From Candidatus Moraniibacteriota bacterium (GTDB taxonomy: Bacteria; Patescibacteriota; Minisyncoccia; Moranbacterales; UBA1568), in the NCBI GenBank assembly GCA_030648835.1, contig JAUSGT010000002.1, positions 12,108-76,107 on the forward strand: a stretch of DNA of 64,000 bases, read 5' to 3'. A program made the translations under genes and the position numbers. This document shows positions 5,230 to 24,524 of this stretch, one piece after another. Within the stretch, counting starts at the first letter, position 1, and the number at the start of each line of letters is the position of its first letter. Below the pieces are notes generated by a model. The model searched no databases. It saw nothing but the letters and a program-made list of their open reading frames with translations, and had not been told where the DNA came from.

Positions 5230-6645
5230 ATGACAAACGAGGATCTCTGGAAGGCTGTACTCGGCCAAATTGAGCTTTCTATTTCCAAAGCAAATTTTAT
5301 CACCTGGTTTAAAAATACACTTATCCTGAACAACCAGGACGGAGTGGTAACCATCGGTGTCCCAAACGGATTTGCGAAAGAGTGGTTGGAAAACAAATAC
5401 AATCTGTACATTTTGCGTGCCCTAAAAAGTTTTGACGAGAGCGTCAAGACTATCCACTGTGTTATCGCGCCAGAAAGAGTGAGTAGCATAACGCCAAACG
5501 TTGATTCCCTGAAAAATGTCGACGCCGTAAAGCCGCCCGAAAACACCGGTTTTGTACGAAAAAGGCTCATTGAAAAGCCGTTTTTTACCGCAACTGGGCC
5601 ATCAACAACCACTTTTCATGAAACCAACCTCAACAACCGCTATACGTTTGAAAACTTCATTGTGGCCGAAAATAATGAACTGGCGCGAGCGGCCTGCTAT
5701 GCCGTTTCACAAAACCTGGGGATGGCGTATAACCCACTTTTCATCTATGGTGGCGTGGGGCTTGGGAAAACCCACCTTCTCCAGTCAATCGGAAATGAAG
5801 TGGCAAAAAGCTCACCGGAAAAGAGAATCAAGTATATCAATTCGGAGCGTTTTACCACGGAACTCGTTGATTCCATCAAAAATCAGAAAATCGATAAGTT
5901 CAAAGAGTACTATCAGCAAATGGATCTCCTGATTATCGATGATATCCAGTTCCTCGCCGGGCGAGAAAAGACTCAGAATGAATTCTTCCATATTTTTAAC
6001 ACTCTCTACCAAATAAACAAACAGATTGTCATATCGAGCGACCGCCCACCCAAAGCTATCCCCACGCTGGAGGAACGTCTGCGCTCCCGCTTCGAAGGAG
6101 GGATGATAGCGGACATCAGCCGCCCGAACCTCGAGACGAGAATCGCCATTTTGGAATCCAAAATCGCGGAAAAGGGCTTCATTATCGACGCCCCGGCAAT
6201 CCGCTTCATTGCGGAACACATCACCCAAAATATCCGTGAGCTCGAGGGGGCGCTCAACCGCGTTATCGCCTTTTCCGAATTCCACAAGATCTCCCCAACG
6301 CTCGAAAACACGGAGAAAATCCTTTCCCAGCTCATCGAAAACAACAAAAAAACCATCCAGGTGGAGGATGTTTTCCGTACGGTTTCGGAATTTTATGGCG
6401 TTACAAAAGAAGCCCTGGTCAAAAAAGGACGGAAAAAAGAAGTTTCCCATCCTCGTCAAGTAATGATGTTTTTCCTCCGCACGGAACTTCAAACGCCCTT
6501 CTCCGCTATCGGAGAAATTCTTGGCGGGAGAGACCATACAACCGCACTCCACGCCTTTGAAAAAATAAATACCAATAAAGAAACCCACGCGCGCCTCAAA
6601 GAGGAGCTCAGCACGCTCAAAGATCGACTCTACTACCCAGCCTAG
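5230..6645 (+). CDS. dnaA: Chromosomal replication initiator protein DnaA
   Basis: 471 aa. Walker A GVGLGKTHLLQSIGNE, an AAA+ domain, a C-terminal DnaA-box-binding domain, and the N-terminus MTNEDLWKAVLGQIELSISKANFITWF. Confidence 0.95.
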   Translation: MTNEDLWKAVLGQIELSISKANFITWFKNTLILNNQDGVVTIGVPNGFAKEWLENKYNLYILRALKSFDESVKTIHCVIAPERVSSITPNVDSLKNVDAVKPPENTGFVRKRLIEKPFFTATGPSTTTFHETNLNNRYTFENFIVAENNELARAACYAVSQNLGMAYNPLFIYGGVGLGKTHLLQSIGNEVAKSSPEKRIKYINSERFTTELVDSIKNQKIDKFKEYYQQMDLLIIDDIQFLAGREKTQNEFFHIFNTLYQINKQIVISSDRPPKAIPTLEERLRSRFEGGMIADISRPNLETRIAILESKIAEKGFIIDAPAIRFIAEHITQNIRELEGALNRVIAFSEFHKISPTLENTEKILSQLIENNKKTIQVEDVFRTVSEFYGVTKEALVKKGRKKEVSHPRQVMMFFLRTELQTPFSAIGEILGGRDHTTALHAFEKINTNKETHARLKEELSTLKDRLYYPA

Positions 6646-6909
6646 AGAAATTCAGTGGATAAGGCTGTATAACCCCCATAACCCCCGTGTATTTTTTTTG
6701 TATAGGTTCCGCGCTTCGGTGAATAAAAACAACCTCTATAAAAATTTCCCAGAGTTATCCTTACTATTACAAATATTCACCCGCATTCCATCCTAATTAT
6801 CACTCCAAAAAACCCATAGATAAAACAAATAGTCCACTTATCCAGATAGTCACAACACTAATCATAATAATAAATTTATATATATAATTAAGAGAATATT
6901 ATAACTTCT
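6646..6909. promoter_or_regulatory. Candidate oriC (dnaA-dnaN intergenic region: DnaA boxes plus AT-rich unwinding element)
   Basis: GTGGATAAG (6655-6663, reverse orientation), TTATCCTTA (6755-6763), TTATCCAGA (6838-6846). Then an extremely AT-rich tract ATAATAATAAATTTATATATATAATTAAGAGAATATTATAA at 6860-6905, immediately before dnaN. Confidence 0.6.
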
Positions 6910-8061
6910 ATGAAACTTATCTGCACCCAAGAAAATCTAAGTCGAGCAATTTCTTGTCTGGAAAGAATCGCCGGGAGACAATCCGCTTTACCGATCCTTA
7001 GTAATTTTCTTTTGGAAACAGAGAAAGGAAGATTGAAAATATCGGCAACAAATTTGGAAATAGGAGGAATTATTTATATTGGGGCAAAAATAGAAAAAGA
7101 AGGGAAGGTTGCCATTCCAGGGAAAGTGCTCTGTAACTTTATTTATAACCTACCCGCGGGGGACGTATTACAGCTGGAGAGTGATAAAGAAGGCTTAAAA
7201 ATAGAGAGCGCGGCATACCAAGTGAAGATAAAAGGAGTGGACGGAAAAGATTTTCCCATCATCCCCCAGTATAAAGAAGAATACCCCTATTCTTTCCCGG
7301 CCCAAAAATTAAAAACCGCCCTTTCCCGGCTTCTGTTTTGTGTGAGTTTGAACAACGCTCGCTTGGAGTTGACGGGCGTTCATGTATTTTTTTATAAAGA
7401 CCAGATCCATTTGGCGGCAACGGACAGTTTTCGTCTTGCCGAGGAAATTATCCTTGTTGCCGGAGGAGGAGAAAGCCAAAGCGACTTTCTTTCCAAAAAT
7501 CAAAGCCTCATTATTCCCGGGAATACCCTTCAGGAGATTATCCGCGTGATTACTCCCGAAAGCCAGGAGGTGAAAATCGCTCTCAAGGAGAACCAGATAT
7601 TTTTTGAGATAGACGGAGTACAAATAATCTCCCGCAGTATCAACGGGAAATACCCGGATTATAAACAAATTATCCCGAAGGAATTTGTACTTTCTGTGAT
7701 ATTGGAGAAAGAGGTTTTCCAAAGGGCGGTAAAAATCGCGAGCGGGTTCTCTTCTTACAACTCCGGTGAGATAGCCCTCACGTTCCAATCAGGAGAAAAA
7801 CAATGCGTAGTTTCTTCACAGTCGGCTGAGACCGGTGAGAACAAAACCACCTTGCCGATAGAAGTGCAAAAGGCCGGACCCACGTTGACGATCATTTTCA
7901 ACCCCCGGTATGTTTTAGAGGGAATAAATGCCCTGCCGGGAGAAAAGATCCTTTTTCTTGCCAACAACAGCTCTAGCCCGGCGGCGCTTCGGGCGTACAC
8001 CGAAGAGAGTGGTACTCTCGCGGGGGACTACCTCTATATTATGATGCCGATACGGAAGTAA
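6910..8061 (+). CDS. dnaN: DNA polymerase III beta subunit (sliding clamp)
   Basis: 383 aa with a three-domain beta-clamp pattern. N-terminus MKLICTQENLSRAISCLERIAGRQSALPILSNFLLE. Located immediately after dnaA. Confidence 0.9.
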   Translation: MKLICTQENLSRAISCLERIAGRQSALPILSNFLLETEKGRLKISATNLEIGGIIYIGAKIEKEGKVAIPGKVLCNFIYNLPAGDVLQLESDKEGLKIESAAYQVKIKGVDGKDFPIIPQYKEEYPYSFPAQKLKTALSRLLFCVSLNNARLELTGVHVFFYKDQIHLAATDSFRLAEEIILVAGGGESQSDFLSKNQSLIIPGNTLQEIIRVITPESQEVKIALKENQIFFEIDGVQIISRSINGKYPDYKQIIPKEFVLSVILEKEVFQRAVKIASGFSSYNSGEIALTFQSGEKQCVVSSQSAETGENKTTLPIEVQKAGPTLTIIFNPRYVLEGINALPGEKILFLANNSSSPAALRAYTEESGTLAGDYLYIMMPIRK

Positions 8062-8322
8062 TTGTTAAAAATAATCAATAATTAACGGGAAACAACATTG
8101 TTTACATGTACCAAAGGCGAGTGAGTATTTTAAGTAATACGCACTTGGGAGGAGATGCGGGATCCAGAGGGTGGTGTTTCTTCTACAAACAGGTTTCTTG
8201 GCAGGTACCCTGGATCCTCGGGTCAAGCCCGAGGATGACAAGAGAAAAGGAATTCTCTGTTAGAAAACAAAAAACTATAAACAACGCTCTAGTATCTAAC
8301 TGTTATTTGTCGACTGACAGCT

Positions 8323-8613
8323 ATGAGGACGCTCAAGGAACTCCTTCCGAGGAAACAGCTCACCATACCGAAAGAAATTGATGAGAAAACCATATTTCAC
8401 ATTGCCAAACAGGTTTTGATCGAGGAATACGGCGCGCGTGGTGGAGAAAATATCATTCCCAGTTATTACAAGAACAAGAAACTTTTTTTGTCTCCCAGAA
8501 GCTCCCTGTGGAGCAGCGAAGCGTATCTGATGCGCGAACACCTGGTCTCACGCATCAACGCCATTCTCGGCAGCGAAGCAGTGAAGGAAATAAAAATCGC
8601 TCAGCAGATGTGA
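8323..8613 (+). CDS. DUF721 / DciA-like small protein
   Basis: 96 aa. The C-terminal segment LSPRSSLWSSEAYLMREHLVSRINAILGSEAVKEIKI resembles the DUF721 family, which is usually found next to dnaA/dnaN/recF. Confidence 0.5.
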   Translation: MRTLKELLPRKQLTIPKEIDEKTIFHIAKQVLIEEYGARGGENIIPSYYKNKKLFLSPRSSLWSSEAYLMREHLVSRINAILGSEAVKEIKIAQQM

Positions 8614-8665
8614 AACAACAAAAATAAAAGCCCCGCTCGAGCGGGGCTGTGTCTCTCGGTTTCTT

Positions 8666-11188
8666 TTAGGGGGAGGTGACGGTCATGGTTTTGCTGTCGC
8701 TAGATTTGTTCCCATTTTTGTCTTTTACTTCAACCTCTACTGTGAGCGTAGTGGGGCTCGCAGGAGTAGTGTATGTTACAGAAGATGAGGATCCTACAGA
8801 AGAGCCATTGACGGAGTACGTAATGGAATCTACTCCGTAGGGAGCGTCTACGCTTGAGTTGAATGTTACTGACGAGTTCACCGTAGCACTTCCCGGGATG
8901 GAAAGGGATACATCCGGCTGGAATTTTTTAAAATCGCTCTCTTTGCAGGAATCGGTCGGCGGGGCATCGGAAACGGTCCCTTTCTGTTTCTTGTACCAAT
9001 CTGAAACCCCGTTCTCCCAATTTTTGAATTGCGAGTCACGGTCCGGTTTGTCGGGGATTGGTCCGCGCGGATTATCACGGGACACATAGAAGAGGATGTC
9101 ATGGGAGCTCACAAAATCTTTTTTGTCCATTTCACCGTCAGGACAGTATTTATTGGCGAGACAGTAATTGCCTTTATCGCCGGGAATACCGCACACCTTG
9201 AGGTTTTCTTTTTGTTCCAGCTTTCCTGCGAGCATAGGTTTGTTCGTTTTTCCTTCTCCGTCGCCGATTTCATTGTTTGGGTCATACTTGGGGAATTCCT
9301 CGATAGCATAGTTGGCGAGAGCCTTATCGAGAAAGGCGCGCCAAATCGGAGCCGCCACGTTGACGCCATCGGCTCCCTCGGTCATAGGCGAGTTGTCGTT
9401 GTTTCCTGCCCAGACGCCGACAGCCAGCGAGGGAGTGTACCCAATGGTCCAACCGTCACGAAATTCGTTGGTGGTACCGGTTTTTGCAGCTACAGAACGT
9501 TTGTCGAAGCGCAGGGGAGAGTTGTCCCCAAATACCCAAGCCCGGTTGTTATTGTTGGAGAGAATGGAATCCAACATTGCCACATATTTCTCATCGACTA
9601 CGCGTTCCCCAGCGTCTGGTTTGAATTCCTCCACAATAGCTCCCTTGGGGTCTTCAATGCGCAGGATGGCTGTTTCCTTGTGTCTGATTCCTCCGGTGGC
9701 CAGGGTACCGTAGGCACTGACGTGATCGATAAGCTTGACTTCGCCTCCACCCAAGACGAGCGAGAGCCCGAGTTTGCTTGGGTCATTCAACCCCGCGATA
9801 CCGAGATTTTTTGCCATTTGGATGGCATCATTTACCCCAACCAGGTAGAGGGTTTTGACGGCGGGGACATTCAGTGATCCGCCCAGTGTCTTCATCATAG
9901 GCAGCGGACCATGGAACTTCCCGTCGTAATTGTTTGGCTCGTAGCTTTTTCCTTCCGCGGTTTCAAACTGCGTTTTGGTATCATACAGAATAGTTTCCGG
10001 AAGATAGCCTTTGGTGAAGGCGGTGAGATACACGTACGGTTTGAAAGACGACCCCGGTTGGCGGTCACGCGTGGTTACGTTCACGTTGCCGTCGATAGAG
10101 GTATCGAAGTAATCTTTGGAACCTACCATAGAAAGAACCTGCCCCGTTCTCGGATCCAGAGCGATGAGCGCCGCGTTGGAAGCCTTCCATTTTTTGTTTT
10201 TTTCGGCGCCTTCGCGCACCGCTTGCTCGGCAATCTGCTGCTTGTCCCAATCCAGGGTAGTGATGACTTTATACCCGCCTTGTTCCACGACCTGGTCGCC
10301 GTACTTTTGTTGGAGATAATCTTTGATAAACATGACGAAATGTGGCGCGGCGATCACGTCTTTTTGCGGCTGAAGTTTGTTGAGTGTCGGAGTATCAATC
10401 GCTTCCTGCGCCTGTTCTTCCGTAATATATCCGAGGCGCGCCATTGTTTTGAGGGCGAAAGCTTTGCGTCCGATGAGCGCGTCGCGGTGGGAGCCATACG
10501 GGGAATAGTAAGCGGTCGCCTGAGGGAGGGCGGCGATTACGGCCGCTTCATCGAGCGTGAGTTCTCGCGCCGACTTACCAAAAAAAGTCTGGGCAGCGGC
10601 TTCAACGCCGTAGGCATTTGACCCATAGGGGATCTCATTTAAGTACATTGCCAGAATCTCATCTTTGGAAAACTTTGTTTCCATTTCCAGTGAGAGAATA
10701 ACCTCCTTCACTTTTCTGATCAGCGTTTTTTCGTTGGTGAGGAGGGAATTTTTGACGAATTGTTGGGTGATGGTCGAACCTCCTTGGGCTTTCCCGAGAC
10801 TGACAACGTCTTTCATGAGCGAGCGGATAATAGAGGTGAGCTTGATGCCATAGTGATTGTAGAAGTCCTGATCTTCAAGGCTGATAGTAGCGTATTTGAT
10901 AACGTCCGGCATATCGGAAAACGCAATGATGGTACGTTTTTCTTCGCCGTGTACCTCATAGAGCAGGTGGGTACCGGTACGGTCGTAGATTTTGGTTGAT
11001 TCCGGGATGACGCGGTTATTCACGCTCCCGGGCGAGGGGAGATCTTTGGCAATATAGGCGAAAGTACCGAGCGCCAGGAGCCCCGCTAAAACGAAAAGAA
11101 AGAGCACGGTTTTCCAAAAGATTGACCAAGCGTGGTTTTTTGGCTTTATTTCGCCAGGAATGGTGCGTCTTTTACGAAAAAATGACAT
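8666..11188 (-). CDS. Class A penicillin-binding protein (bifunctional transglycosylase/transpeptidase) with C-terminal S/T-rich extension
   Basis: GT51 motifs (EDQDFYNHYGI, GGSTITQQFVKN) followed by a transpeptidase domain. N-terminal TM anchor. The start is set at the internal Met MSFFRKRR. The C-terminal roughly 100 aa are Ser/Thr/Val-rich and look beta-sandwich-like. Confidence 0.85.
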   Translation of the reverse strand: MSFFRKRRTIPGEIKPKNHAWSIFWKTVLFLFVLAGLLALGTFAYIAKDLPSPGSVNNRVIPESTKIYDRTGTHLLYEVHGEEKRTIIAFSDMPDVIKYATISLEDQDFYNHYGIKLTSIIRSLMKDVVSLGKAQGGSTITQQFVKNSLLTNEKTLIRKVKEVILSLEMETKFSKDEILAMYLNEIPYGSNAYGVEAAAQTFFGKSARELTLDEAAVIAALPQATAYYSPYGSHRDALIGRKAFALKTMARLGYITEEQAQEAIDTPTLNKLQPQKDVIAAPHFVMFIKDYLQQKYGDQVVEQGGYKVITTLDWDKQQIAEQAVREGAEKNKKWKASNAALIALDPRTGQVLSMVGSKDYFDTSIDGNVNVTTRDRQPGSSFKPYVYLTAFTKGYLPETILYDTKTQFETAEGKSYEPNNYDGKFHGPLPMMKTLGGSLNVPAVKTLYLVGVNDAIQMAKNLGIAGLNDPSKLGLSLVLGGGEVKLIDHVSAYGTLATGGIRHKETAILRIEDPKGAIVEEFKPDAGERVVDEKYVAMLDSILSNNNNRAWVFGDNSPLRFDKRSVAAKTGTTNEFRDGWTIGYTPSLAVGVWAGNNDNSPMTEGADGVNVAAPIWRAFLDKALANYAIEEFPKYDPNNEIGDGEGKTNKPMLAGKLEQKENLKVCGIPGDKGNYCLANKYCPDGEMDKKDFVSSHDILFYVSRDNPRGPIPDKPDRDSQFKNWENGVSDWYKKQKGTVSDAPPTDSCKESDFKKFQPDVSLSIPGSATVNSSVTFNSSVDAPYGVDSITYSVNGSSVGSSSSVTYTTPASPTTLTVEVEVKDKNGNKSSDSKTMTVTSP

Positions 11189-11302
11189 ACGAAGTGTGTA
11201 AGCGGTGTCTTCATTTATACCATAAAAAAGGAGCGGAGAGAAGCTTCGAAACCCTTCATCGCTTTGAGCCTGTGCCATACTTACCGAGTCGGCTAGTTCT
11301 TC

Positions 11303-12262
11303 TTATGAGAGCGTGGCAAGTTTGTTTTTAAACACACGCAGAAGAGATCGATGCATTTTCATCATAGAAGGTTTTTCTTCGGGGGTGAAATAAAGTCCGG
11401 GCATGGAGTTAAGTTCGACTACCCAGGGCCTTTTGCTCTTGTCAAACATGAGGTCGATAGTGTAGATTTTTGGGTGGAATGATTTAAAAATATTTTGAGC
11501 CCATTTCACTATAGGGAGGACTGATTTGGGGACGCTATTTTTTGGTATAACGGTCAGGCTACCGCCTTGGGCGAAATTAGCAAGATAGCTGCCCGTCTTT
11601 GGCTCACGGATATAAGTGTAGACAATCGTATCATTGACAAAGACCAGCCGCAGGTCGTGCATGCCACTTTTTATGCCCGGAACACCGCAAGAGGAATCTA
11701 TGAACTCCTGGAGAATATGCTCTCCTCGGAATGATATCTTTGAGGTATTTTTTTTAGGGAAAACCTGAACGCCTTTGCCGCCACTTTCACAAATTGGTTT
11801 GAGGACAGCTAGGGGGGTGCCTACTTTTTTCGCAGCCACCTGAAGTTCTGCATGACTCCTGACGATATAATTTTCTTTGCTCCATTGCGGGAAAAGAAGT
11901 CCGGTTACGAATTTATCATCAATGATGCGCGTGAAGATGCGATCATTGATGAATGCATAGCGCTCGGCCATCAATTCTTTTTTGTAATAGACTTCCTCAC
12001 GGCCTTTGGTCTTGTCATAGATAAGGTCCGGTTTTATATCAGAAACACGTTCCCACTTACTGGTCTTGCCGCTGAAAATCCAAGCATGCTTAAAAATATG
12101 TTTTTCGTAGTCATACCATTCATACGAGGCGCGGTACATCTGGATTCCATTTTTCTTACACAGACTATAGAGTAGCTCGTAAGAATATTGGTAATCTTTA
12201 TTATCGAACGGCCGGCTTTTCTCCCAGCGGCTTCTGCCAAAAAGAATCATTACCTTTTTCAT
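11303..12262 (-). CDS. ATP-grasp domain ligase (unassigned subfamily)
   Basis: VLKPICESGGKGVQVF is the phosphate-binding loop. DLRLVFVND and PWVVELNSMPG give the E-x-N Mg-binding motif. Together these are typical of ATP-grasp amidoligases. Confidence 0.65.
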   Translation of the reverse strand: MKKVMILFGRSRWEKSRPFDNKDYQYSYELLYSLCKKNGIQMYRASYEWYDYEKHIFKHAWIFSGKTSKWERVSDIKPDLIYDKTKGREEVYYKKELMAERYAFINDRIFTRIIDDKFVTGLLFPQWSKENYIVRSHAELQVAAKKVGTPLAVLKPICESGGKGVQVFPKKNTSKISFRGEHILQEFIDSSCGVPGIKSGMHDLRLVFVNDTIVYTYIREPKTGSYLANFAQGGSLTVIPKNSVPKSVLPIVKWAQNIFKSFHPKIYTIDLMFDKSKRPWVVELNSMPGLYFTPEEKPSMMKMHRSLLRVFKNKLATLS

Positions 12263-12273
12263 ACCGGTTGAAG

Positions 12274-13800
12274 TTATTTATTGACATCGATAAGGAACTT
12301 TCGCAGATTTTTTCGCCCGACAATAACCGGATACTCGAGGTGTGCGCGATCTATGACAGAGACTCTCGCGGGGATAGAGAGGGTATCCATAACAAGCTCA
12401 ATGTGAACCACGGGACGGTAGGAGGCCCCGTGAGAAGATTGTACGGAGGTGGTGTCGGCAAGATCGGGGACGGAAGAAAAAAGCAGTTCGCGTTCGGCTT
12501 TTGTGAGTTCTTGCATAATATCACGACCAGCTACCTTTTCATCAAAAATGCGAAGTGTTTCTGCAAATCCCAGCTCTTTCGCAAGTTCGGTATCGATAGC
12601 CGTCGAATCGGCACCAGTGTCGATTTTGGCTTCCACCTCGATTTCTTTGCCATCTTTGCCGATGAGCTTCACTTTCTCGATGGTGCCGATGACGCGTTTG
12701 CCGGAGAGTTCCTCGATTTCTTCCTCGATTTCACCGCCGAAAAGATTCATTCCAACCCGCATCCCGCGTTCGGTGGTCTTGACTTGGAGACCTTTGACAC
12801 GATTGAGCCGGCTTTTCAGCCCGGAAAAATTTGCCAGTTGGATGGAGAGCCCCGGACGGGCATTGAGTTCGAGAATGACCGGGCCGCGCTCGCGGTCGAT
12901 GGCGATATCGGCGCCGAGAAAACCGAGATGCGAAATGGCTTGGGCGTCGATGGCCATACGGAGAACATCTTTCCAGTAAGGAATCTTGATGCCAGAAAGG
13001 ATGAGCCGCGTGTTGGGCACGTATTCGATGATATGACCTTTGCCGAGAATGGCCGTGGTGGTCGTCCCGGTGGCAAGGTCGATACCGACGCCGATAGCCC
13101 CTTGTTGCAGATTGGCCTTGCCATCAGAGTGTTTGGTCGGGAGACGGAGCATGGCCATTATCGGAATGCGGTTGTAAATGATGACGCGGATATCCGGGAT
13201 GCCTTTGTAGGCGTAAGGTTTGAAAAGTTTCAAGAGTTTTAGACGCTCTTCAAAAAAAGCGATATCAGGGATATTGGAAAGAGAAAATGATCCGTCGAGA
13301 ATGTTGCGGATGTGGTTTTTCAGATCATCAACGGTGACTATGGAGCCGTCAGCCTTGACCCAGTTTTCACTGAAAGGATTTGTCTCATTTTCTCCTATGG
13401 GTTTTTCTGGTGTATTTGTTGAGTCGCTTGGTGTCGTTTTCGTCGCCGGAAGAGGCGTGGCGCTTGGGCTCGAATGAGCATTCAGGGGTGAGGACTGAGG
13501 GGCGGTAGATTTTTTCCGTCCATAGACAACGAGAATTCCTTCGCCACCGAAACCGCGGTTTGGTTTCAAAGCGAAACTATTGGGGAGCGTGGAGAAGTCG
13601 AACTTTTCCAATTCCTCGTGGTTTTCGATCTTCGCGATAAGCGCCGGGACACCGAGATTATTTTTTTTCAGGGTACGCTTGCAGAGGAGTTTGCTATCGG
13701 CAATCTCCATCCCACGTTTGCGGTTGGAAGGGCGGATGTAATCGAGGTTTCTCGCATTCATACCGAGAAGCCCCTGGCTTTTTTTGAAAAAATCGAACAT
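12274..13800 (-). CDS. RimK-like ATP-grasp ligase fused to a C-terminal retropepsin-like (Zn_protease/COG4067-type) domain
   Basis: N-terminal MNARNLDYIRPSNRKRGMEIADSKLL...ALKPNRGFGGEGILVV...ILELNARPGLS has RimK-related ATP-grasp motifs. A low-complexity S/T/P linker follows. The C-terminal 150 aa carry EAKIDTGADSTAID, the D-T-G-A aspartyl-protease motif. The start is reassigned to the Met at 13800, so the gene does not overlap the upstream gene. Confidence 0.65.
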   Translation of the reverse strand: MFDFFKKSQGLLGMNARNLDYIRPSNRKRGMEIADSKLLCKRTLKKNNLGVPALIAKIENHEELEKFDFSTLPNSFALKPNRGFGGEGILVVYGRKKSTAPQSSPLNAHSSPSATPLPATKTTPSDSTNTPEKPIGENETNPFSENWVKADGSIVTVDDLKNHIRNILDGSFSLSNIPDIAFFEERLKLLKLFKPYAYKGIPDIRVIIYNRIPIMAMLRLPTKHSDGKANLQQGAIGVGIDLATGTTTTAILGKGHIIEYVPNTRLILSGIKIPYWKDVLRMAIDAQAISHLGFLGADIAIDRERGPVILELNARPGLSIQLANFSGLKSRLNRVKGLQVKTTERGMRVGMNLFGGEIEEEIEELSGKRVIGTIEKVKLIGKDGKEIEVEAKIDTGADSTAIDTELAKELGFAETLRIFDEKVAGRDIMQELTKAERELLFSSVPDLADTTSVQSSHGASYRPVVHIELVMDTLSIPARVSVIDRAHLEYPVIVGRKNLRKFLIDVNK

Positions 13801-13867
13801 ACATTGGAATTTGGAATCTAGAATCTCGTATTTAGCTGAATACCAAGTACAAAATATCAAATACCAA

Positions 13868-14524
13868 TTATAAATAGCGAGCGATTTTGCGAAAACGGAA
13901 ATATTCCGTGACGCGCAGCCCCGTCCATTTCCCGAGGGAGAAATTGATGAGGAAAGTGAAGAGAATAATCCAGGGGAAGCGGAGAATGAGCGTGGTAAGG
14001 GCGTTCCAGCTGATGAGATAATAGCCAATAACGGAGATGAGAAGTGTTTCTGCCGCCAGAATGAAAGCGATGTGGCTGCCCTTCTCAATTTGCGTTGCGA
14101 CGAATTTTTCCGCCAGCGTAATCATGATGAGCAAGGGGAAAATACTCACCGCGGCCAGACCGGTACGCTGGTACATGCCACCGATGACGAGAATGATGAG
14201 AATAGCGAGAGAGATGATGGAGAGGGTGATAGCGACGCGCGGCAGATAGAGCAGGCGGAACCTCTTGAGGGCGAAGCGGACGATCATACCGACAACAATG
14301 ACGCCGACAAAGATAGCGATGCCGTATTTCACGCCATTCGGATCAAATGCCAAGAGGGCGAAGGTGATGATTGACGGCGTGTAGATGCCGAAGGCCTTGA
14401 TACCGATGACTTGGCGGAAGAAGGCTACCAGTGTCGCGATGACGGGAAGCATGAGGAGGAGGAGCACCGTCTGTATCGGAACGCCTTGCTCGACAAAAAA
14501 CGTGATGAGGGGATGATATTCCAT
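13868..14524 (-). CDS. Multi-pass integral membrane protein (6-7 TM), first gene of the ATP-grasp operon
   Basis: 218 aa, highly hydrophobic with about 6-7 predicted helices. It is 67 nt upstream of the RimK-like fusion on the same strand. Confidence 0.5.
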   Translation of the reverse strand: MEYHPLITFFVEQGVPIQTVLLLLMLPVIATLVAFFRQVIGIKAFGIYTPSIITFALLAFDPNGVKYGIAIFVGVIVVGMIVRFALKRFRLLYLPRVAITLSIISLAILIILVIGGMYQRTGLAAVSIFPLLIMITLAEKFVATQIEKGSHIAFILAAETLLISVIGYYLISWNALTTLILRFPWIILFTFLINFSLGKWTGLRVTEYFRFRKIARYL

Positions 14525-14640
14525 AAGTTATGTTATAAATTCTAATATCGAACCTCTAATTTCTAAACAAATCACAAACGACAAACCTTAAACCGCCCAT
14601 TTCTTGATTTGTGATTTCGAATTTGTCTATTGTTTCAAAT

Positions 14641-15138
14641 TTAGTCTTTCGAATTTCGAATTTTATCCATACGGCGGCGGCTGGCATGGCAGAGCGCCAG
14701 CGCCAGCGCATCCGCTACATCGTCCGGCCTGGGGATGGCGGAGAGTTTGAGGAGCGCCTTCACCATCAATTGTACCTGGGATTTGTCTGCTCGCCCATAA
14801 TTCGTCAAGGCCTGTTTCACTTCGAGCGGAGTGTAACCGGAAACTTTAACACATAAATTTTCTAAAGTCAAGAGGATAGCGCCCCGCGCTTGAGCGACGG
14901 AAATGACCGTTTTCTGGTTCTTGAAGAAGAAAAGTTCTTCCACGGCGGCTTCCTCTGGCCGGTATTTTTTGATGATGCCAGAGAGATCTCTGGAAATTTC
15001 CAAGAGCCGTTCGGAAAGCGGCAAATCTTTGGATGTACTGATGTGCCCGAAAGCCATGACAGCATTCTTGCTTCCCTCTACTTCTATGACGCCCCAGCCG
15101 ACCGTTGCGGTGCCGGGATCGATTCCTAAAATACGCAT
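14641..15138 (-). CDS. ruvC: Holliday junction resolvase RuvC
   Basis: MRILGIDPGTATVGWGVIE contains the catalytic Asp. The fold is RNase H-like and the size is 165 aa. Confidence 0.9.
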   Translation of the reverse strand: MRILGIDPGTATVGWGVIEVEGSKNAVMAFGHISTSKDLPLSERLLEISRDLSGIIKKYRPEEAAVEELFFFKNQKTVISVAQARGAILLTLENLCVKVSGYTPLEVKQALTNYGRADKSQVQLMVKALLKLSAIPRPDDVADALALALCHASRRRMDKIRNSKD

Positions 15139-15142
15139 AGAT

Positions 15143-15925
15143 TTACGATTTACGATTTTGGATTTTAGTATGAGCCATAGTCCAGAACACTTTGAAAAGC
15201 TCGCGCTGATTTCTGGCTAAGAGAGGATCATGAATTTCTACCAAGTAATGCGGGCGGTTACGAGTCTGCCCCATGATGACATAATCGCCGATAATCCAGA
15301 AACTGGAATCAAAATTATTTTCCGCTGGCAGAATTTTATATTGGCGCTCGGGATATTTCTTCCGCATCTTTTCTTCAATCATAGCTTCATTGGTGAAAAA
15401 ACGCACCTTTTGATTTCGCGGACCATGTTTCCACAACCAATCGACATACTTGCTGTAGCTTTCGGTAAACGTGTGATCATGGTAGCCCCACCAGGTATTG
15501 TCGCGCTGCAGACCGCTCTTGGCCCACAGCGGATACTGTTTATACAAATAATCATTCAGATCAGCTTCTTCGACGAATTTGATTTTCGGGACGGAGTAAG
15601 TTGCTTGAGAGGGGAGGGCGGCGAGATCCTTGCTCATTTTTTTTGCAAGAACCAGCCGTTTTTTTAAGAGCGTTTCTTCTTTGGCAAACATCTGTTCGAG
15701 AGCCGCGGGCTTTTCGGCATAGAGGTAAGCAACTTTAGCCCCCAGATCTTCAGAAATCAAACCCAACCCATCGAGTTTGCGGGAAATGCTATAGACGGTC
15801 GTCCGGTTGATGCTCGTTTCTTTGGCCACACGGGCAGGAGCGATTTTTCCGGCACGCAAAACTGCGAGATAGACTTCCCGTTCGTTTTCATTCAGTCCCA
15901 GTTGAGCGAACTCTTTTTCCAGCAT
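15143..15925 (-). CDS. TrmB-family transcriptional regulator
   Basis: N-terminal wHTH LGLNENEREVYLAVLRAGKIAPARVAKETSINRTTVYSISRKLDGLGLI is typical of TrmB. Confidence 0.65.
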   Translation of the reverse strand: MLEKEFAQLGLNENEREVYLAVLRAGKIAPARVAKETSINRTTVYSISRKLDGLGLISEDLGAKVAYLYAEKPAALEQMFAKEETLLKKRLVLAKKMSKDLAALPSQATYSVPKIKFVEEADLNDYLYKQYPLWAKSGLQRDNTWWGYHDHTFTESYSKYVDWLWKHGPRNQKVRFFTNEAMIEEKMRKKYPERQYKILPAENNFDSSFWIIGDYVIMGQTRNRPHYLVEIHDPLLARNQRELFKVFWTMAHTKIQNRKS

Positions 15926-16118
15926 AGACAGTTATGGCTCTAGTATACCTGTTGTTGGCAAATAGTCAACAAAAGTACATAATATAGCGTAAATAAGCTG
16001 ATTTAAGAACTATAAATAGTTGACAAAAAACCAACAATACTATAGACTCTCTTGTTACTTAACAACTAGGGCATACTACCCAACCGATTCCCGGCGGCGT
16101 TCCGGGGTGGAGAATAAA

Positions 16119-16730
16119 ATGAGTGGACCTGCTGATGAAGTTTATAATCTGTGCATAATCGATAGCATCCTCGCCGAATGTATGGCTACGGCTAGCCACG
16201 AAATACGTCAGCAAGAAGCATCGGCGACGAAACGCGCCATCAAAGCCAGAAAAGAAATGGAAAAATATGCACAAAAACATTTTGACAAGTACGGAGAATG
16301 GCCAGGCGGCTGGGACGAAATTCACGATATGGAAGAGGCGGCGGCGGCCTTAGCCGCTCAAGCGGAACATATCGAGAATATGACTATGATTCAACAGCAA
16401 TGGTTGAATGGAGGATGGTCTTCAGAAACATGGAAGGCCGAAATTACCGACTATCTGAAGAACAATGAAAGAAAGGACGTTAAGGATAGAGATGAGTACT
16501 ATGACAACATGCAGAATAAGAGATATTGGAAAGACCGTGGTGCCACGGTAATAAAGAAAATGTTGAAATATATTGACCTTCGAGAATTTGATCTCCTAGA
16601 CGAGAAGCGGCTTGTTAAGGACTTGGCAAAGTTCGGAGAGCAACTCCGAATTAGGGCAACTCCAGATCCGAAAGGCACTTCAGCCGAAGCATGCGCCATG
16701 TTGGTACTGTTCTATCAAACTCAGCATTAG
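16119..16730 (+). CDS. Hypothetical protein (acidic, W-rich; no recognisable domain)
   Basis: ORF with the start moved to the Met preceded by GGGGTGGAGAAT. An intrinsic terminator follows it. No family recognised. Confidence 0.45.
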   Translation: MSGPADEVYNLCIIDSILAECMATASHEIRQQEASATKRAIKARKEMEKYAQKHFDKYGEWPGGWDEIHDMEEAAAALAAQAEHIENMTMIQQQWLNGGWSSETWKAEITDYLKNNERKDVKDRDEYYDNMQNKRYWKDRGATVIKKMLKYIDLREFDLLDEKRLVKDLAKFGEQLRIRATPDPKGTSAEACAMLVLFYQTQH

Positions 16731-21395: not shown

Positions 21396-24300
21396 TTACA
21401 AATCAGTGACGCGCTTCACTTCGTCGAGCGTGGTTAACCCTTCAAGGACACAGAGGATGCCGTCTTGGAGGAGGGTGATCATTCCAAGCGCGACCGCTTT
21501 CTCCTCGATTTCACTGACGAGCGCGCCATGAGCGATGAGCTCGGAGAGTTCTTTGCCGATGAGGAGCGTTTCGGCGATGACCATCTGCCCCGTGAAACCG
21601 GTACCACTACAGGTCGTACAGCCTTTGCCATGAGAGAGTCGCATTTTTTTGGTAAGCGCATCTTTGTCTGGTAATGATGCTAAGACCTTTTTAATAATTT
21701 CCTTTTCGGCTTCAGTTGGAGGGAGAGATTCTTTGCACTTGGCACAGATTTTTCGGACCAAACGCTGAGCCATGAAAAGATTGGCGGTGTTGGCGAGGTC
21801 GTCGTTCGTCACTCCCATCGCGGTCAGGCGGGAGACGACACCCGCAGCCGAATTGGTATGGAGGGTGGAGAGGACGAGGTGCCCGGTACTGGCGGCCTGG
21901 ACGGCAATTTGCGCGGTTTTTTCGTCACGGATTTCACCGATCATCAGAATATCGGGATTCTGGCGCATAAGCGAACGGAGCGCGGTAGCGAACGTATAGC
22001 CCTCGCTCTCTTTGGTTTGGGTTTGGAGGATGCCTTGGATCTGGTATTCGATCGGATCTTCAACCGTGATTATTTTTACTTCGGGCTTATTCAGTTTGGC
22101 GAGAATACTGTAGAGGGTGGAAGTTTTTCCGGAGCCGGTCGGGCCGGTGTTCAAGATTATCCCGTGTGGTTTGCCGATAGCCGCGTAAATATTTTCCAGA
22201 TTTTGTTTGCGGATGTGGAGCGTGTCGAGGTCGAGTTTGACGACGGACTGATTGAGAAGGCGCATGACAATTGTTTCACCGAAACCGCCGAGGATGATGG
22301 AAAGACGGATATCAACGGTATCAGGCTTTTCCTCCCCGGCCTTTTCGATGGTAAGAGAAAAACGACCATCAATGGTACCGGAACGTTCACCCGATTTGAG
22401 CCCGGCCGCCAGTTTGATTTCCGCGATGAGGGTCGGGTATTCGGTAATGGGAATGCGCGCGGCCGTTTGGAGAATGCCATCGATGCGATAGCGTACGTCG
22501 ACCATGTCTCCTTGAGGTTCGATATGGATATCTCCGGCGCGCAAGAGAAGCGCCCCGGCAAAAATAGCAGGCAGGCGTAATTGGGAGTCGATCCCGGCGA
22601 TATAGCCGGCAAATTTTTTGAGTGAAGTGGTTTCTTTTTTTGTTTTTGTGAAAAGGATTTCGGTAATGTGGGTGGAGCGGGAAAGTTCGCTCGGCATCAA
22701 CTCGGCATAGATATTTTGGAGAGATTCTGTCTGATCGGCGACGCGCCAGACTTCATCGAGCGTCGTGATGCCTTCGAGCGCTTTGAGAATTCCATCTTGG
22801 GTCATCGTGATCATCCCGTTTTCCAGCGCGGCGCGGAGAATTTCTTGCTCGTTCCCCATATTGTTGACGATCTTTATGATTTCTTCCGTCATGGTGAGCA
22901 CTTCAAATATGCCGATGCGGCCATGATAACCGGTGAAATTGCATTTTGCGCACCCGACCGCCTTGAAGAGAGAATCCACTTTTTTGGGGAGCGAAATTTT
23001 GGCTTTGGGAGAAATGATGGTGATGAGTTTCAGGATAGAATCAATGGTTTCCCGAGCCGGCGCGTAGGAAGCTTTACAGTCTGGGCAGAGGATGCGCACC
23101 AAGCGCTGTCCGATGAGAGCGTTCAGCGAGGCGGTGATGAGATCCGGCTTGACGCCGAGCTCCATAAAGCGCGGGATGGCGGCAGCGGCGCTGTTGGTGT
23201 GGAGGGTGGAAAATACGAGGTGTCCGGTAAGCGCGGCATTGACGGTGATGTCGGCGGTTTCCTCGTCGCGAATTTCCCCAACAAGAATCATATCGGGATC
23301 CTGGCGGACGATAGCGCGGAGCGCGGTGGCGAAGGTATAATCCTTGTTTTTGGAGATTTCCGTCTGCACGATGCCGGGCAGGGTGTATTCGATCGGGTCT
23401 TCGACAGTGATGACTTTTGTATCCGGCTGGTTGACGTGGTTCAAGAGTGTGTAGAGTGTCGTGGTTTTTCCGGAGCCGGTTGGACCGGTATTCAAGATGA
23501 GACCGTTCGGTTTGGAAATTTGTTTCAAGACTTCTTCATAAGCCAGCCCACGCAGTCCAAGTTTTTCGACATCGACGATGACATCGTCACCGGAAAGGAG
23601 GCGCATATTGATGTTTTCGCCATATTTTCCCGGGATGCTCGAGACGCGGACATCGATGCGCTTCTGGTCGAGATCGACGAAGAAGTGCCCATCTTGAGCT
23701 TCTTTGCGGATATTGAGGCGCATCTTGGCGATCATTTTGATACGTGAGAGGAGGAGGTGGTAGAGCTCTTGGGGGAGATCGCCGACTTCTTGGAGCACAC
23801 CGTCGATGCGGTAGCGCAGGCGGATGGCAGATTCTTCCGGCTCGAGATGGATGTCGCTGGCTCGGAGTTTTCTGGCGCCGGCCAAAATGATTTCCATCGA
23901 ACGCGAGGTGTTGAGCTTCTGACCTTCCTTGAGTGAGATAAGCTCCCCAAAATCTTTTTCGAATTTTTCCAAGTCGCTATCGCCGAGAGAGACACGCACG
24001 AGATCGAGAGCATCGAGAAAGGTGCGCTTGGAGTAATATTCCCAGGCGTGTTTGATGGACTGTTTCGAAATGAGGTACAGCTCTATCTGCCAGCCGTGTT
24101 TCTCGGCGAGAGCTTGGATGTATTCCAGCGCCCCCTTGTTCTTTGGATCGAGAAGAGCGAAACGGGTGAGCGTACTTTTTTTGCTGAAGAGGATGACGTT
24201 CCATTTTTTGGATTCAGCTTCCGGGAGGAGCATGATATCCTCGGCGTTTAAAGGGAAAGCGTGAAGATCGATGTATGAGAAGCCGCTTTTGGCGGCCAAG

Positions 24301-24410
24301 AGCGAGGCCTGTTCTTCCATCGAAATCTCGCGCATTTTTTTCAAAATCGCTTGTGTTTTTTCTTCTTTTTGAGAAGAGGGAGTTGTATTTTGGTGAACCA
24401 CCTTTACCAT
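21396..24410 (-). CDS. Tandem-duplicated type II/IV secretion ATPase (GspE_N + two complete PilB/GspE N2-ATPase cores in one polypeptide)
   Basis: First core: Walker A LILNTGPTGSGKTTTL, an Asp box, His box TLHTNSAA, and a tetra-Cys CPDC...CAKC. Second core: Walker A IILNTGPTGSGKTSTL, VLSTLHTNSAAG, and CAKC...CTTC. An N-terminal T2SSE_N-like domain precedes them. The start is moved to MVKVVHQ (24410). Confidence 0.85.
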   Translation of the reverse strand: MVKVVHQNTTPSSQKEEKTQAILKKMREISMEEQASLLAAKSGFSYIDLHAFPLNAEDIMLLPEAESKKWNVILFSKKSTLTRFALLDPKNKGALEYIQALAEKHGWQIELYLISKQSIKHAWEYYSKRTFLDALDLVRVSLGDSDLEKFEKDFGELISLKEGQKLNTSRSMEIILAGARKLRASDIHLEPEESAIRLRYRIDGVLQEVGDLPQELYHLLLSRIKMIAKMRLNIRKEAQDGHFFVDLDQKRIDVRVSSIPGKYGENINMRLLSGDDVIVDVEKLGLRGLAYEEVLKQISKPNGLILNTGPTGSGKTTTLYTLLNHVNQPDTKVITVEDPIEYTLPGIVQTEISKNKDYTFATALRAIVRQDPDMILVGEIRDEETADITVNAALTGHLVFSTLHTNSAAAAIPRFMELGVKPDLITASLNALIGQRLVRILCPDCKASYAPARETIDSILKLITIISPKAKISLPKKVDSLFKAVGCAKCNFTGYHGRIGIFEVLTMTEEIIKIVNNMGNEQEILRAALENGMITMTQDGILKALEGITTLDEVWRVADQTESLQNIYAELMPSELSRSTHITEILFTKTKKETTSLKKFAGYIAGIDSQLRLPAIFAGALLLRAGDIHIEPQGDMVDVRYRIDGILQTAARIPITEYPTLIAEIKLAAGLKSGERSGTIDGRFSLTIEKAGEEKPDTVDIRLSIILGGFGETIVMRLLNQSVVKLDLDTLHIRKQNLENIYAAIGKPHGIILNTGPTGSGKTSTLYSILAKLNKPEVKIITVEDPIEYQIQGILQTQTKESEGYTFATALRSLMRQNPDILMIGEIRDEKTAQIAVQAASTGHLVLSTLHTNSAAGVVSRLTAMGVTNDDLANTANLFMAQRLVRKICAKCKESLPPTEAEKEIIKKVLASLPDKDALTKKMRLSHGKGCTTCSGTGFTGQMVIAETLLIGKELSELIAHGALVSEIEEKAVALGMITLLQDGILCVLEGLTTLDEVKRVTDL

Positions 24411-24524
24411 ACCATTTGTTTTTTTGTTTGTGCCCCCATTGTACCTCAAAATGAGGTGCTTCGGCAAAAGAAAAACCCAGCTCAAGTAACTGGGTGAACA
24501 GAAACATTGAAAAGGAGGAACTCT

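Follow-up and report, generated by a model that had tools for sequence, protein, structure and literature searches.

A fused ATP-grasp ligase and retropepsin-like protease with a membrane partner in a Moranbacteria genome: a candidate relative of the Rlo and Rim systems

What could three neighboring genes that encode a membrane protein, a ligase fused to a protease, and a further ligase accomplish together in a bacterium with a small genome? The question is raised by a stretch of 64,000 nucleotides (henceforth the window, whose positions we use throughout) from a metagenome-assembled genome of an uncultured, small-genome Candidatus Moranbacteria bacterium of the Candidate Phyla Radiation (CPR). 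An original prediction, made from the sequence alone, read these genes as an operon for a membrane-associated system that ligates amino acids and trims the product. We followed it up with Hidden Markov Model (HMM) searches, structure models, and a comparison of related loci. We give an even chance to the reading that the locus encodes a minimal, fused CPR version of the Rlo/Rim amino-acid ligase and poly-glutamate protease system, which would export an acidic peptide to the envelope.

The prediction held that the retropepsin-like domain (Zn_protease/COG4067) was known only computationally; the original computational description is reportedly that of Iyer et al. from 2009. That statement is outdated, because RimB (PMC11957791) and RloA1-3 (PMC12239564) have been characterized. 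The rloABC genes of Pseudomonas aeruginosa have been dissected genetically (Lormand et al., mBio 2025, PMC12239564). RloA, RloA2, and RloA3 are secreted retropepsin-like peptidases with crystal structures that cleave runs of at least eight Glu residues, and rloA forms an operon with rloB (an inactive transglutaminase plus a seven-transmembrane (7TM) region) and rloC (a cytoplasmic ATP-grasp) (PMC12239564). The hypo-osmotic lethality of a mutant lacking all three proteases (rloA1-3) is suppressed when rloB or rloC is deleted (PMC12239564), which places the ligase and the 7TM protein upstream of the protease substrate in Pseudomonas. Osmotic, biofilm, and beta-lactam phenotypes characterize the Rlo system. 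RimB is a cytoplasmic poly-Glu endopeptidase that trims tails; it also stimulates RimK to synthesize free poly-alpha-L-glutamate (Little et al., JBC 2025, PMC11957791).

The ligase-protease fusion and its partners

The three genes are adjacent open reading frames (ORFs) on the minus strand. Their coordinates agree with the original prediction, as do the gaps of 67 nt between the 7TM and fusion genes and 11 nt between the fusion and second ligase genes. Their features are the following.

13868-14524, minus strand: 7TM protein of the RloB/7TM_transglut family, 218 aa (PF14402, E 9.5e-28), with no extracellular domain
12274-13800, minus strand: fusion protein, 508 aa, composed of an RloC-type ATP-grasp amidoligase and a RimB/RloA-type retropepsin-like aspartic peptidase (HMM searches)
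12781-13800, minus strand: ATP-grasp ligase domain of the fusion, residues 1 to ~340, with invariant catalytic residues
13363-13512, minus strand: genome-specific Pro/Ser/Thr-rich loop insertion of ~45-50 residues (97-146) within the ATP-grasp domain (alignment)
12700-12747, minus strand: nearly invariant acidic linker N-L-F-G-G-E-I-E-E-E-I-E-E-L-S-G (LFGGEIEEEIEELSG) between the ligase and protease domains
12277-12693, minus strand: retropepsin-like domain, residues 370-508, with the catalytic D394-T-G-A (residues 394-397) at 12610-12621
11303-12262, minus strand: accessory stand-alone ATP-grasp ligase, 319 aa, divergent RimK-like, type "Ca" (PF08443)

The domain assignments were borne out, with positive HMM searches for PF14402, PF14397, TIGR02291, PF05618, and PF08443. 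The ligase part of the fusion matches PF14397 (ATPgrasp_ST; E 1.2e-65, 221.9 bits) and TIGR02291 (E 3.3e-80, 269.5 bits). The latter model, which represents the RloC-like family and is named "alpha-L-glutamate ligase-like", is by far the best match of the fusion, at a score below the equivalog cut-off of 314.2 bits; relatives without the loop insertion score 290-298 bits. The protease part matches PF05618 (Zn_protease, now named RimB-like) with an E value of 1.1e-9 and 38.8 bits. A hydropathy scan detected no signal peptide and no transmembrane segment in the fusion or in the second ligase. The protease, attached to the C-terminal end of a ligase and lacking a signal peptide, is therefore cytoplasmic, as are both ligases.

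An AlphaFold2 (AF2) model of the fusion has a mean predicted local distance difference test (pLDDT) score of 75.6 and comprises two folded domains, a disordered loop (100-143), and a low-confidence linker. In Foldseek comparisons, the ligase domain is nearest to ArgX, LysX, and RimK, which extend peptide C-termini by amino acids. Its residues K79, E184, D298, E311, and N313 do not vary among 107 two-domain fusions, nor among 37 larger triple fusions from a sister clade (described below). The loop insertion, for which pLDDT falls below 50 at residues 100-143, is absent from most fusion homologues (typically 464 aa), and a few homologues carry other, unrelated insertions at the same site.

Most positions of the acidic linker are invariant in 38 homologues and the rest are ≥90% conserved, and the AF2 pLDDT of the linker is <50. 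The linker is also nearly invariant in the 107 fusions, although this is partly due to ascertainment since LFGGEIEE was one of the search patterns; the alignment of 38 homologues is independent of that pattern. The linker might act as a pseudo-substrate, or dock onto the basic face that the 7TM protein turns to the cytoplasm. We also considered a self-cleavage site and judged it unlikely, as the linker contains at most three consecutive Glu residues whereas RimB needs at least five and RloA at least eight (PMC11957791, PMC12239564).

The original prediction that the C-terminal D-T-G-A domain is retropepsin-like was upheld by the HMM match and by the alignment to PDB structure 9g58. The domain carries K-I-D-T-G-A and matches 9g58 and 9g59. 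We took 9g58 to be mature P. aeruginosa RloA because an offset of +20 brings all nine published residues into register. In this alignment RloA K46, D48, R114, and R137 correspond to K392, D394, R462, and R485 of the fusion; in RloA, poly-Glu cleavage suffers most when R114 or R137 is mutated (PMC12239564). DTGA, R462, and R485 are retained in all 107 two-domain fusions and K392 in 102 of them (Arg in the other five). Judged from these residues, the retropepsin of the window's clade is clearly under selection for activity.

The 7TM protein scores 97.8 bits against PF14402 (7TM_transglut; cut-off 25). It covers only positions 312-505 of the 508 positions of the RloB model NF052267 (77.9 bits, cut-off 900). 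Because the protein has 218 aa and matches only the C-terminal 7TM part of this model, it lacks the transglutaminase ectodomain. A Kyte-Doolittle scan indicated about seven hydrophobic helices, and none in the two other proteins. The positive-inside rule predicts that the N-terminus is outside, the C-terminus is inside, and the cytoplasmic face and tail are basic. Identity is 75-94% across 30 aligned homologues, and at least 120 homologue clusters were listed. The AF2 model from 31 homologues has low confidence (pLDDT 63.5), and this poor model, which had no Foldseek match, provides no structural clue to a transporter or sensor role.

The second ligase matches PF08443 (RimK) with an E value of 1.1e-7 and 32.1 bits, above the gathering cut-off of 21, and scores 44.1 bits against TIGR00768, below the cut-off of 143.4. 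The Mg site E283-L-N285 and residues K155 and D270 are invariant in 30 homologues. A search of the single sequence against the PDB gave no match at E<0.01; RimK structures were reached only with the family profile, at E 1e-5. The family comprises 382 clusters, all from Moranbacteria or Parcubacteria.

Several characterized ligase families were considered and rejected as identities of the window proteins. Neither ATP-grasp is a Ddl, in keeping with the original prediction: the second ligase scored 19.1 bits against a cut-off of 243, and the fusion had no Ddl match at E≤0.1. Cyanophycin synthetase models (TIGR02068/NF010623, cut-off at least 850 bits) gave the window proteins only 14.7 and 11 bits. 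Both ligases fail the curated cut-offs for glutathione synthetase, and their scores against pseudomurein-ligase models are negligible.

A conserved core, a variable slot, and a sister clade

We scanned one genome per GTDB species and found a relative of the fusion in 451 genomes; the best 80 loci were used for a census of gene order by ORF and BLAST comparison. The best 80 relatives are from Moranbacteria-type CPR genomes, have 59-76% identity, and span residues 1-508 of the query (6-508 in two). In a separate set of homologue clusters, of which at least 120 were listed, the fusion has 66-81% identity, and both domains were present in precomputed Pfam annotations in all but five of the 120 listed. 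Many metagenome-assembled genome (MAG) records titled "uncultured Bdellovibrionales bacterium" (L015, L018, L020, and others) hold the Moranbacteria-type syntenic block at 60-72% identity, and these titles look like mislabels.

The census strongly supported the co-conservation that the original prediction had proposed to look for in related genomes. The order is invariant: RuvC, the 7TM gene (~218 aa), the fusion, a variable slot, the class A penicillin-binding protein PBP1A, and DnaN where the flank reaches it, with DciA between PBP1A and DnaN in the relatives with gene calls. In 75 of 77 related loci the fusion is immediately preceded by the 7TM gene, and in 59 of 62 PBP1A lies on the same strand. 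Given these conservation data, a chance juxtaposition of the three genes is excluded. Compared with four relatives, the 7TM protein shows 62-78% identity and the fusion 60-71% (with the loop gap counted); the values are 56-71% for RuvC, 62-67% for PBP1A, and 44-62% for DnaN. By this sequence measure the core formed by the 7TM protein and the fusion is at least as conserved as these housekeeping proteins. Since the two-gene core is conserved like housekeeping genes in every related Moranbacteria locus examined, the module appears to be old and strongly constrained, and not simply a stress accessory.

The slot between the fusion and PBP1A varies. It contains zero to four accessory ATP-grasps, which fall into at least five types: Ca, Cb, two that are RimK-like, and one resembling the cyanophycin synthetase G domain and GshB. 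Some of these ligases are tandem-fused in relatives. The window has one, of type Ca. The commonest states are a ligase resembling the G domain of cyanophycin synthetase (CphA) alone (16 loci), a RimK-like ligase plus Cb (11), and Ca alone (10). The CphA G-domain likeness (170-220 bits) is limited to accessory ligases of other genomes. Other slot genes in some genomes encode GT4 glycosyltransferases, DUF3541 proteins, MATCAP/QEGLA metallopeptidases, Mur-ligase-like proteins, and YdjC, as well as GNAT-like proteins that were called by eye only. Examples among relatives L006-L085 are L061:10402-12358, L047:11220-12434, L076:11527-12861, and L052:4737-5372. The pattern is that of a fast-changing set of tailoring enzymes beside a conserved core. 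One slot protein of ~630 aa has an HEIEGH (HExxH) motif and no Pfam or NCBIfam match (L012:10481-12370, with homologues in L056 and L083); it may represent a new metallopeptidase family.

An exhaustive search of 1.84 billion representative proteins returned 1968 relatives of the fusion. About 45 of the best 150 are proteins of ~780-816 aa, whose named members are CPR/Patescibacteria. Four relatives of ~800 aa that we scanned combine ATPgrasp_ST with MATCAP/QEGLA (PF08014), and the retropepsin-like region between them was detected by Pfam in one of the four. Alignment to the window fusion indicates that this region is retained but degenerate in these triple fusions. In an alignment of 37 sequences, the HExxH of MATCAP/QEGLA is intact, whereas the D of DTG is kept in 23, the T in 13, and the G in 8, and the equivalents of R462 and R485 are mostly Glu. 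Ligase identity to the window is 35-50%. Other fusion variants among the relatives add YdjC or another ATP-grasp.

Triple fusions resemble the window in having the same ligase family and a 7TM_transglut partner immediately upstream. Such a partner, typically ~505-535 aa, directly precedes the triple fusion in ~35 of 37 metagenome loci with enough upstream sequence. They differ in the added HExxH domain, in the loss of DTG and R462/R485 from most members, in the extracellular PKD domain on the 7TM partner (found in two that were scanned), and in the absence of PBP1A. Their gene context comprises QueA, SpoIIE, a HEAT protein, MurJ, and CysS, with no adjacent PBP (loci L086-L165, e.g., L091:5430-9382), so that the 7TM and fusion genes are co-conserved in two genomic contexts. 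Because the sister clade has a decayed retropepsin and an added metallopeptidase, what is preserved is the coupling of the ligase with some peptidase. The pairing of a 7TM protein with a ligase-peptidase fusion is the evolutionary constant, in which the active peptidase can be swapped. In L091, a gene for the lipid II flippase MurJ (14400-15974) is four genes from the pair of the PKD-bearing 7TM protein and the triple fusion, and ORFs of similar size (~515-524 aa) recur there in several other loci. This could be a coincidence or another envelope link.

Gene starts and transcription signals were assessed for the window itself, where the flanking features are the following.

14539-14567, minus strand: weak promoter-like site upstream of the 7TM gene (TTTAGA-17-TAGAAT, 9/12 matches)
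8666-11278, minus strand: class A penicillin-binding protein PBP1A, with Transgly and Transpeptidase domains, 24 nt downstream of the second ligase gene
8629-8648, minus strand: strong intrinsic-terminator-like hairpin past the PBP1A gene (8 pairs, 7 of them G-C, followed by TTTATTTTTG; consensus scan)

The mechanically listed ORF of the fusion gene reaches a TTG at 14088, and the 508 aa are counted from the ATG at 13800. The real start is 13800, because this MFDFF/MFEFF residue is also where 33 of 37 aligned homologues start; the remaining four have N-terminal extensions. Plus-strand ORFs across the fusion gene (e.g., 12268-13242) were assumed to be mechanical by-products of the ORF listing. 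The adjacency to a class A PBP gene on the same strand was predicted correctly, and the PBP1A gene is possibly co-transcribed with the three genes. On the minus strand, the consensus scan detected no terminator-like site from 14524 to 8648, and the hairpin at 8629-8648 is the first such site downstream of the 7TM gene. By total count, promoter-like sites in the region are no more numerous than in shuffled sequence, and a comparison of five relatives showed no conservation upstream of the 7TM gene. No regulatory RNA was detected in 8000-16500 when scanned with Rfam at E≤1.

The surroundings of the locus include DnaA, DnaN, and a small DciA gene just past PBP1A (5230-8613), and the cumulative GC skew turns near 6-8 kb. 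The locus is thus close to the DnaA-DnaN region, the usual place of the replication origin. On the other side, RuvC and YebC are separated by a TrmB-like helix-turn-helix gene (15143-15925, minus strand) and a 236-aa ORF that lacks annotation (16020-16730, plus strand). This segment (15143-16730) looks like a local insertion because RuvC and YebC adjoin in relatives with gene calls. Farther away, a 1029-aa protein (21396-24485, minus strand) contains two tandem T2SSE (type II/IV secretion ATPase) regions and MshEN, and a similar gene for ~1005 aa is found in relative L003.

Weighing the possible functions

In the reading to which we give an even chance, the cytoplasmic RloC-type ATP-grasp domain would polymerize L-glutamate, or an acidic Glu-rich peptide, without a template and at the expense of ATP. 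The simplest product would be poly-alpha-L-glutamate. Retropepsins are active only as dimers, and two fusion chains would contribute a homodimer that cuts, trims, or releases the chain and, by analogy with RimB, may stimulate the ligase. The second, lineage-variable ATP-grasp would prime, cap, or diversify the peptide. The RloB-type 7TM protein, with its conserved basic face toward the cytoplasm, would take the acidic product into or across the membrane to the envelope. Outward delivery is supported by the genetics of Pseudomonas, which place a periplasmic substrate downstream of both ligase and 7TM protein, and we counted the envelope-type slot genes of related loci (GT4 glycosyltransferases, YdjC, and Mur-ligase-like genes) in favor of this reading. 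The original prediction of a membrane-associated system that ligates and trims thus stands with respect to the domain identities, the fusion, and the 7TM partner, whereas the glutamate substrate, the product and its export, and the part played by the accessory ligase are inferred.

Several observations weigh against this proposal. The specificity of the ligase for glutamate is an extrapolation based on RimK and on the protease residues. The alignment to the fusion shows no conservation of the RloA flap residues R92, K95, K97, R99, and K109; the RloA paper itself calls the flap residues variable (PMC12239564). Because the protease is cytoplasmic and fused to the ligase, the Pseudomonas order of export followed by cleavage cannot apply unchanged. 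Foldseek comparison of the 7TM model with the PDB gave nothing below E 0.5, with no transporter likeness and only spurious GPCR-like matches, and for this reason the export role of the 7TM protein is a guess. The single transcription unit is presumed from gene spacing and the consensus terminator scan. Finally, no acceptor candidate was found in the window: no real ORF of the 64 kb has an acidic C-terminus or a poly-Glu run, the two matches being spurious (antisense or short).

Some of this evidence bears on other explanations. We consider it unlikely that the locus is a reversible protein-tagging system, in which the ligases would extend the C-terminus or a side chain of one protein, the retropepsin would remove the tail, and the 7TM protein would be a scaffold, regulator, or target. 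RimK tags ribosomal protein S6 and LysX and ArgX act on LysW, and these nearest folds of the fusion ligase all modify a protein C-terminus. The MATCAP/QEGLA domain of the sister clade, whose Pfam name is "microtubule-associated tyrosine carboxypeptidase", was likewise read as a C-terminal tail-removing peptidase. RimB and RimK act on RpsF, and RimB needs only at least five terminal Glu residues (PMC11957791). However, the operon includes no candidate acceptor gene, the missing acidic C-termini in the window argue against tagging too, and the 7TM protein ends in a basic tail rather than in Glu. Moreover, the varied accessory ligases, numbering from none to four, fit a variable product better than one conserved acceptor.

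Their variability also counts against a cytoplasmic buffer of glutamate or poly-glutamate, an osmolyte or store that the ligase would build and the protease would break while the 7TM protein senses the membrane or osmotic state without any export. CPR cells lack most amino-acid biosynthesis and would be expected to benefit from an amino-acid store, and the opposing activities are both cytoplasmic and on one polypeptide. The hypo-osmotic sensitivity of Rlo mutants and the role of glutamate as an osmolyte (PMC12239564) are in line with a buffer, as is the turnover of RimK-made poly-alpha-Glu once ATP regeneration ends (PMC11957791). We nevertheless regard this explanation as quite improbable: the Pseudomonas protease acts outside the cytoplasm, so that the product of the family leaves the cell there (PMC12239564), and the PKD or transglutaminase-like ectodomains on the 7TM partners of relatives, together with the slot glycosyltransferases, point outward. 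Modification of peptidoglycan precursors, whereby the ligases would add amino acids to the stem peptide or cross-bridge, PBP1A would cross-link, and the protease would edit, seems to us very improbable. It is suggested by the closeness of PBP1A on the same strand with no terminator between, by the Mur-ligase-like genes in the slot of some relatives, and by the cell-shape and ampicillin phenotypes of Rlo mutants (PMC12239564), which make an envelope link via PBP1A plausible. On the other hand, the Ddl and pseudomurein-ligase scores are negligible, the sister clade keeps the pair of 7TM protein and ligase without PBP adjacency, and known cross-bridge pathways make no use of a 7TM partner or of a poly-Glu-type retropepsin. 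The linkage to PBP1A may also be inherited gene order, since the whole RuvC-to-DnaA block is syntenic and the adjacency is confined to one syntenic lineage. Functional coupling to PBP1A could not be established; the adjacency vanishes in the triple-fusion clade.

Returning to the proposed Rlo/Rim-like export system, a wider version of it would join the core and the hypervariable slot into a CPR pathway for a strain-variable, non-ribosomal, poly-alpha-glutamate-based and possibly glycosylated surface polymer that is exported by the 7TM protein and laid down with peptidoglycan by PBP1A. We hold this version to be unlikely. If it were true, the polymer would be a peptide counterpart of teichoic acids or capsules, with relevance to contact between episymbiont and host. 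With its hypervariable ligases and glycosyltransferases, the slot beside PBP1A gives a hint of a variable envelope polymer in CPR bacteria. The locus also offers a simple model for the ligase product and the role of the 7TM protein, because an ectodomain is absent, the only protease is physically part of the ligase chain, and paralogues were not seen at the locus.

Comparison with known systems

Among the closest known systems is rloABC. The same three families are encoded together, and the window retains the equivalents of the catalytic Asp, the Lys two residues before it, R114, and R137. Features of Rlo found at the window thus include DTG with the Lys/Arg poly-Glu residues, a 7TM_transglut domain, and clustered genes. 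All NCBIfam Rlo cut-offs are missed, and the RloA1-3 models (cut-offs 210-280 bits) give 28-37 bits for the protease domain of the fusion. The window protease is fused to the C-terminus of the ligase and cytoplasmic, whereas RloA is a separate protein secreted with a signal peptide; the window 7TM protein lacks the inactive transglutaminase ectodomain of RloB; and the window carries at least one additional ATP-grasp ligase. Its host belongs to the CPR rather than to the Proteobacteria. RloB has been reported as 96% proteobacterial, and the rlo operon has been viewed as having arisen as an advantage for Gammaproteobacteria (PMC12239564). The presence of the core in every related Moranbacteria locus examined is at odds with this largely proteobacterial view.

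With the Rim systems, the locus shares a cytoplasmic retropepsin-like protease that works with, or is fused to, an ATP-grasp alpha-L-glutamate ligase. In the RimB-RimK hybrid of some bacteria, the protease is N-terminal and proteolytically active (PMC11957791); the domain order of the window fusion is reversed, with the protease at the C-terminus. The fusion ligase is of the RloC/ATPgrasp_ST type and scores only 33.7 bits against TIGR00768 (cut-off 143.4). Rim systems have no membrane partner, and their target RpsF is not implicated at the window locus.

Two other comparisons can be drawn. The tubulin tail code (TTL/TTLL, MATCAP/CCP) also combines template-free Glu or Tyr tails with dedicated removing peptidases, which is an analogy only: there is no tubulin, a weak TTL Pfam match spans 33 residues, and MATCAP occurs only in relatives. 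Cyanophycin synthetase and the Pgs/Cap systems make template-free amino-acid polymers with ATP-grasp and/or Mur-ligase-type enzymes. Here, CphA-G-like and Mur-ligase-like genes are carried by relatives and not by the window, and there are no PgsB, PgsC, or PgsA homologues. In contrast to poly-gamma-glutamate synthases, the specificity predicted for the window protease points to alpha-linked Glu.

The original prediction that such an operon had never been studied does not hold for its parts, given the dissection of rloABC (PMC12239564), and does hold for this architecture and lineage. The Rlo and Rim families were already known. What is new here is their combination in CPR bacteria, where RloC-like and RloA-like parts are fused ("RloC-RloA"), the RloB-like 7TM protein is bare, and accessory ligases are added.

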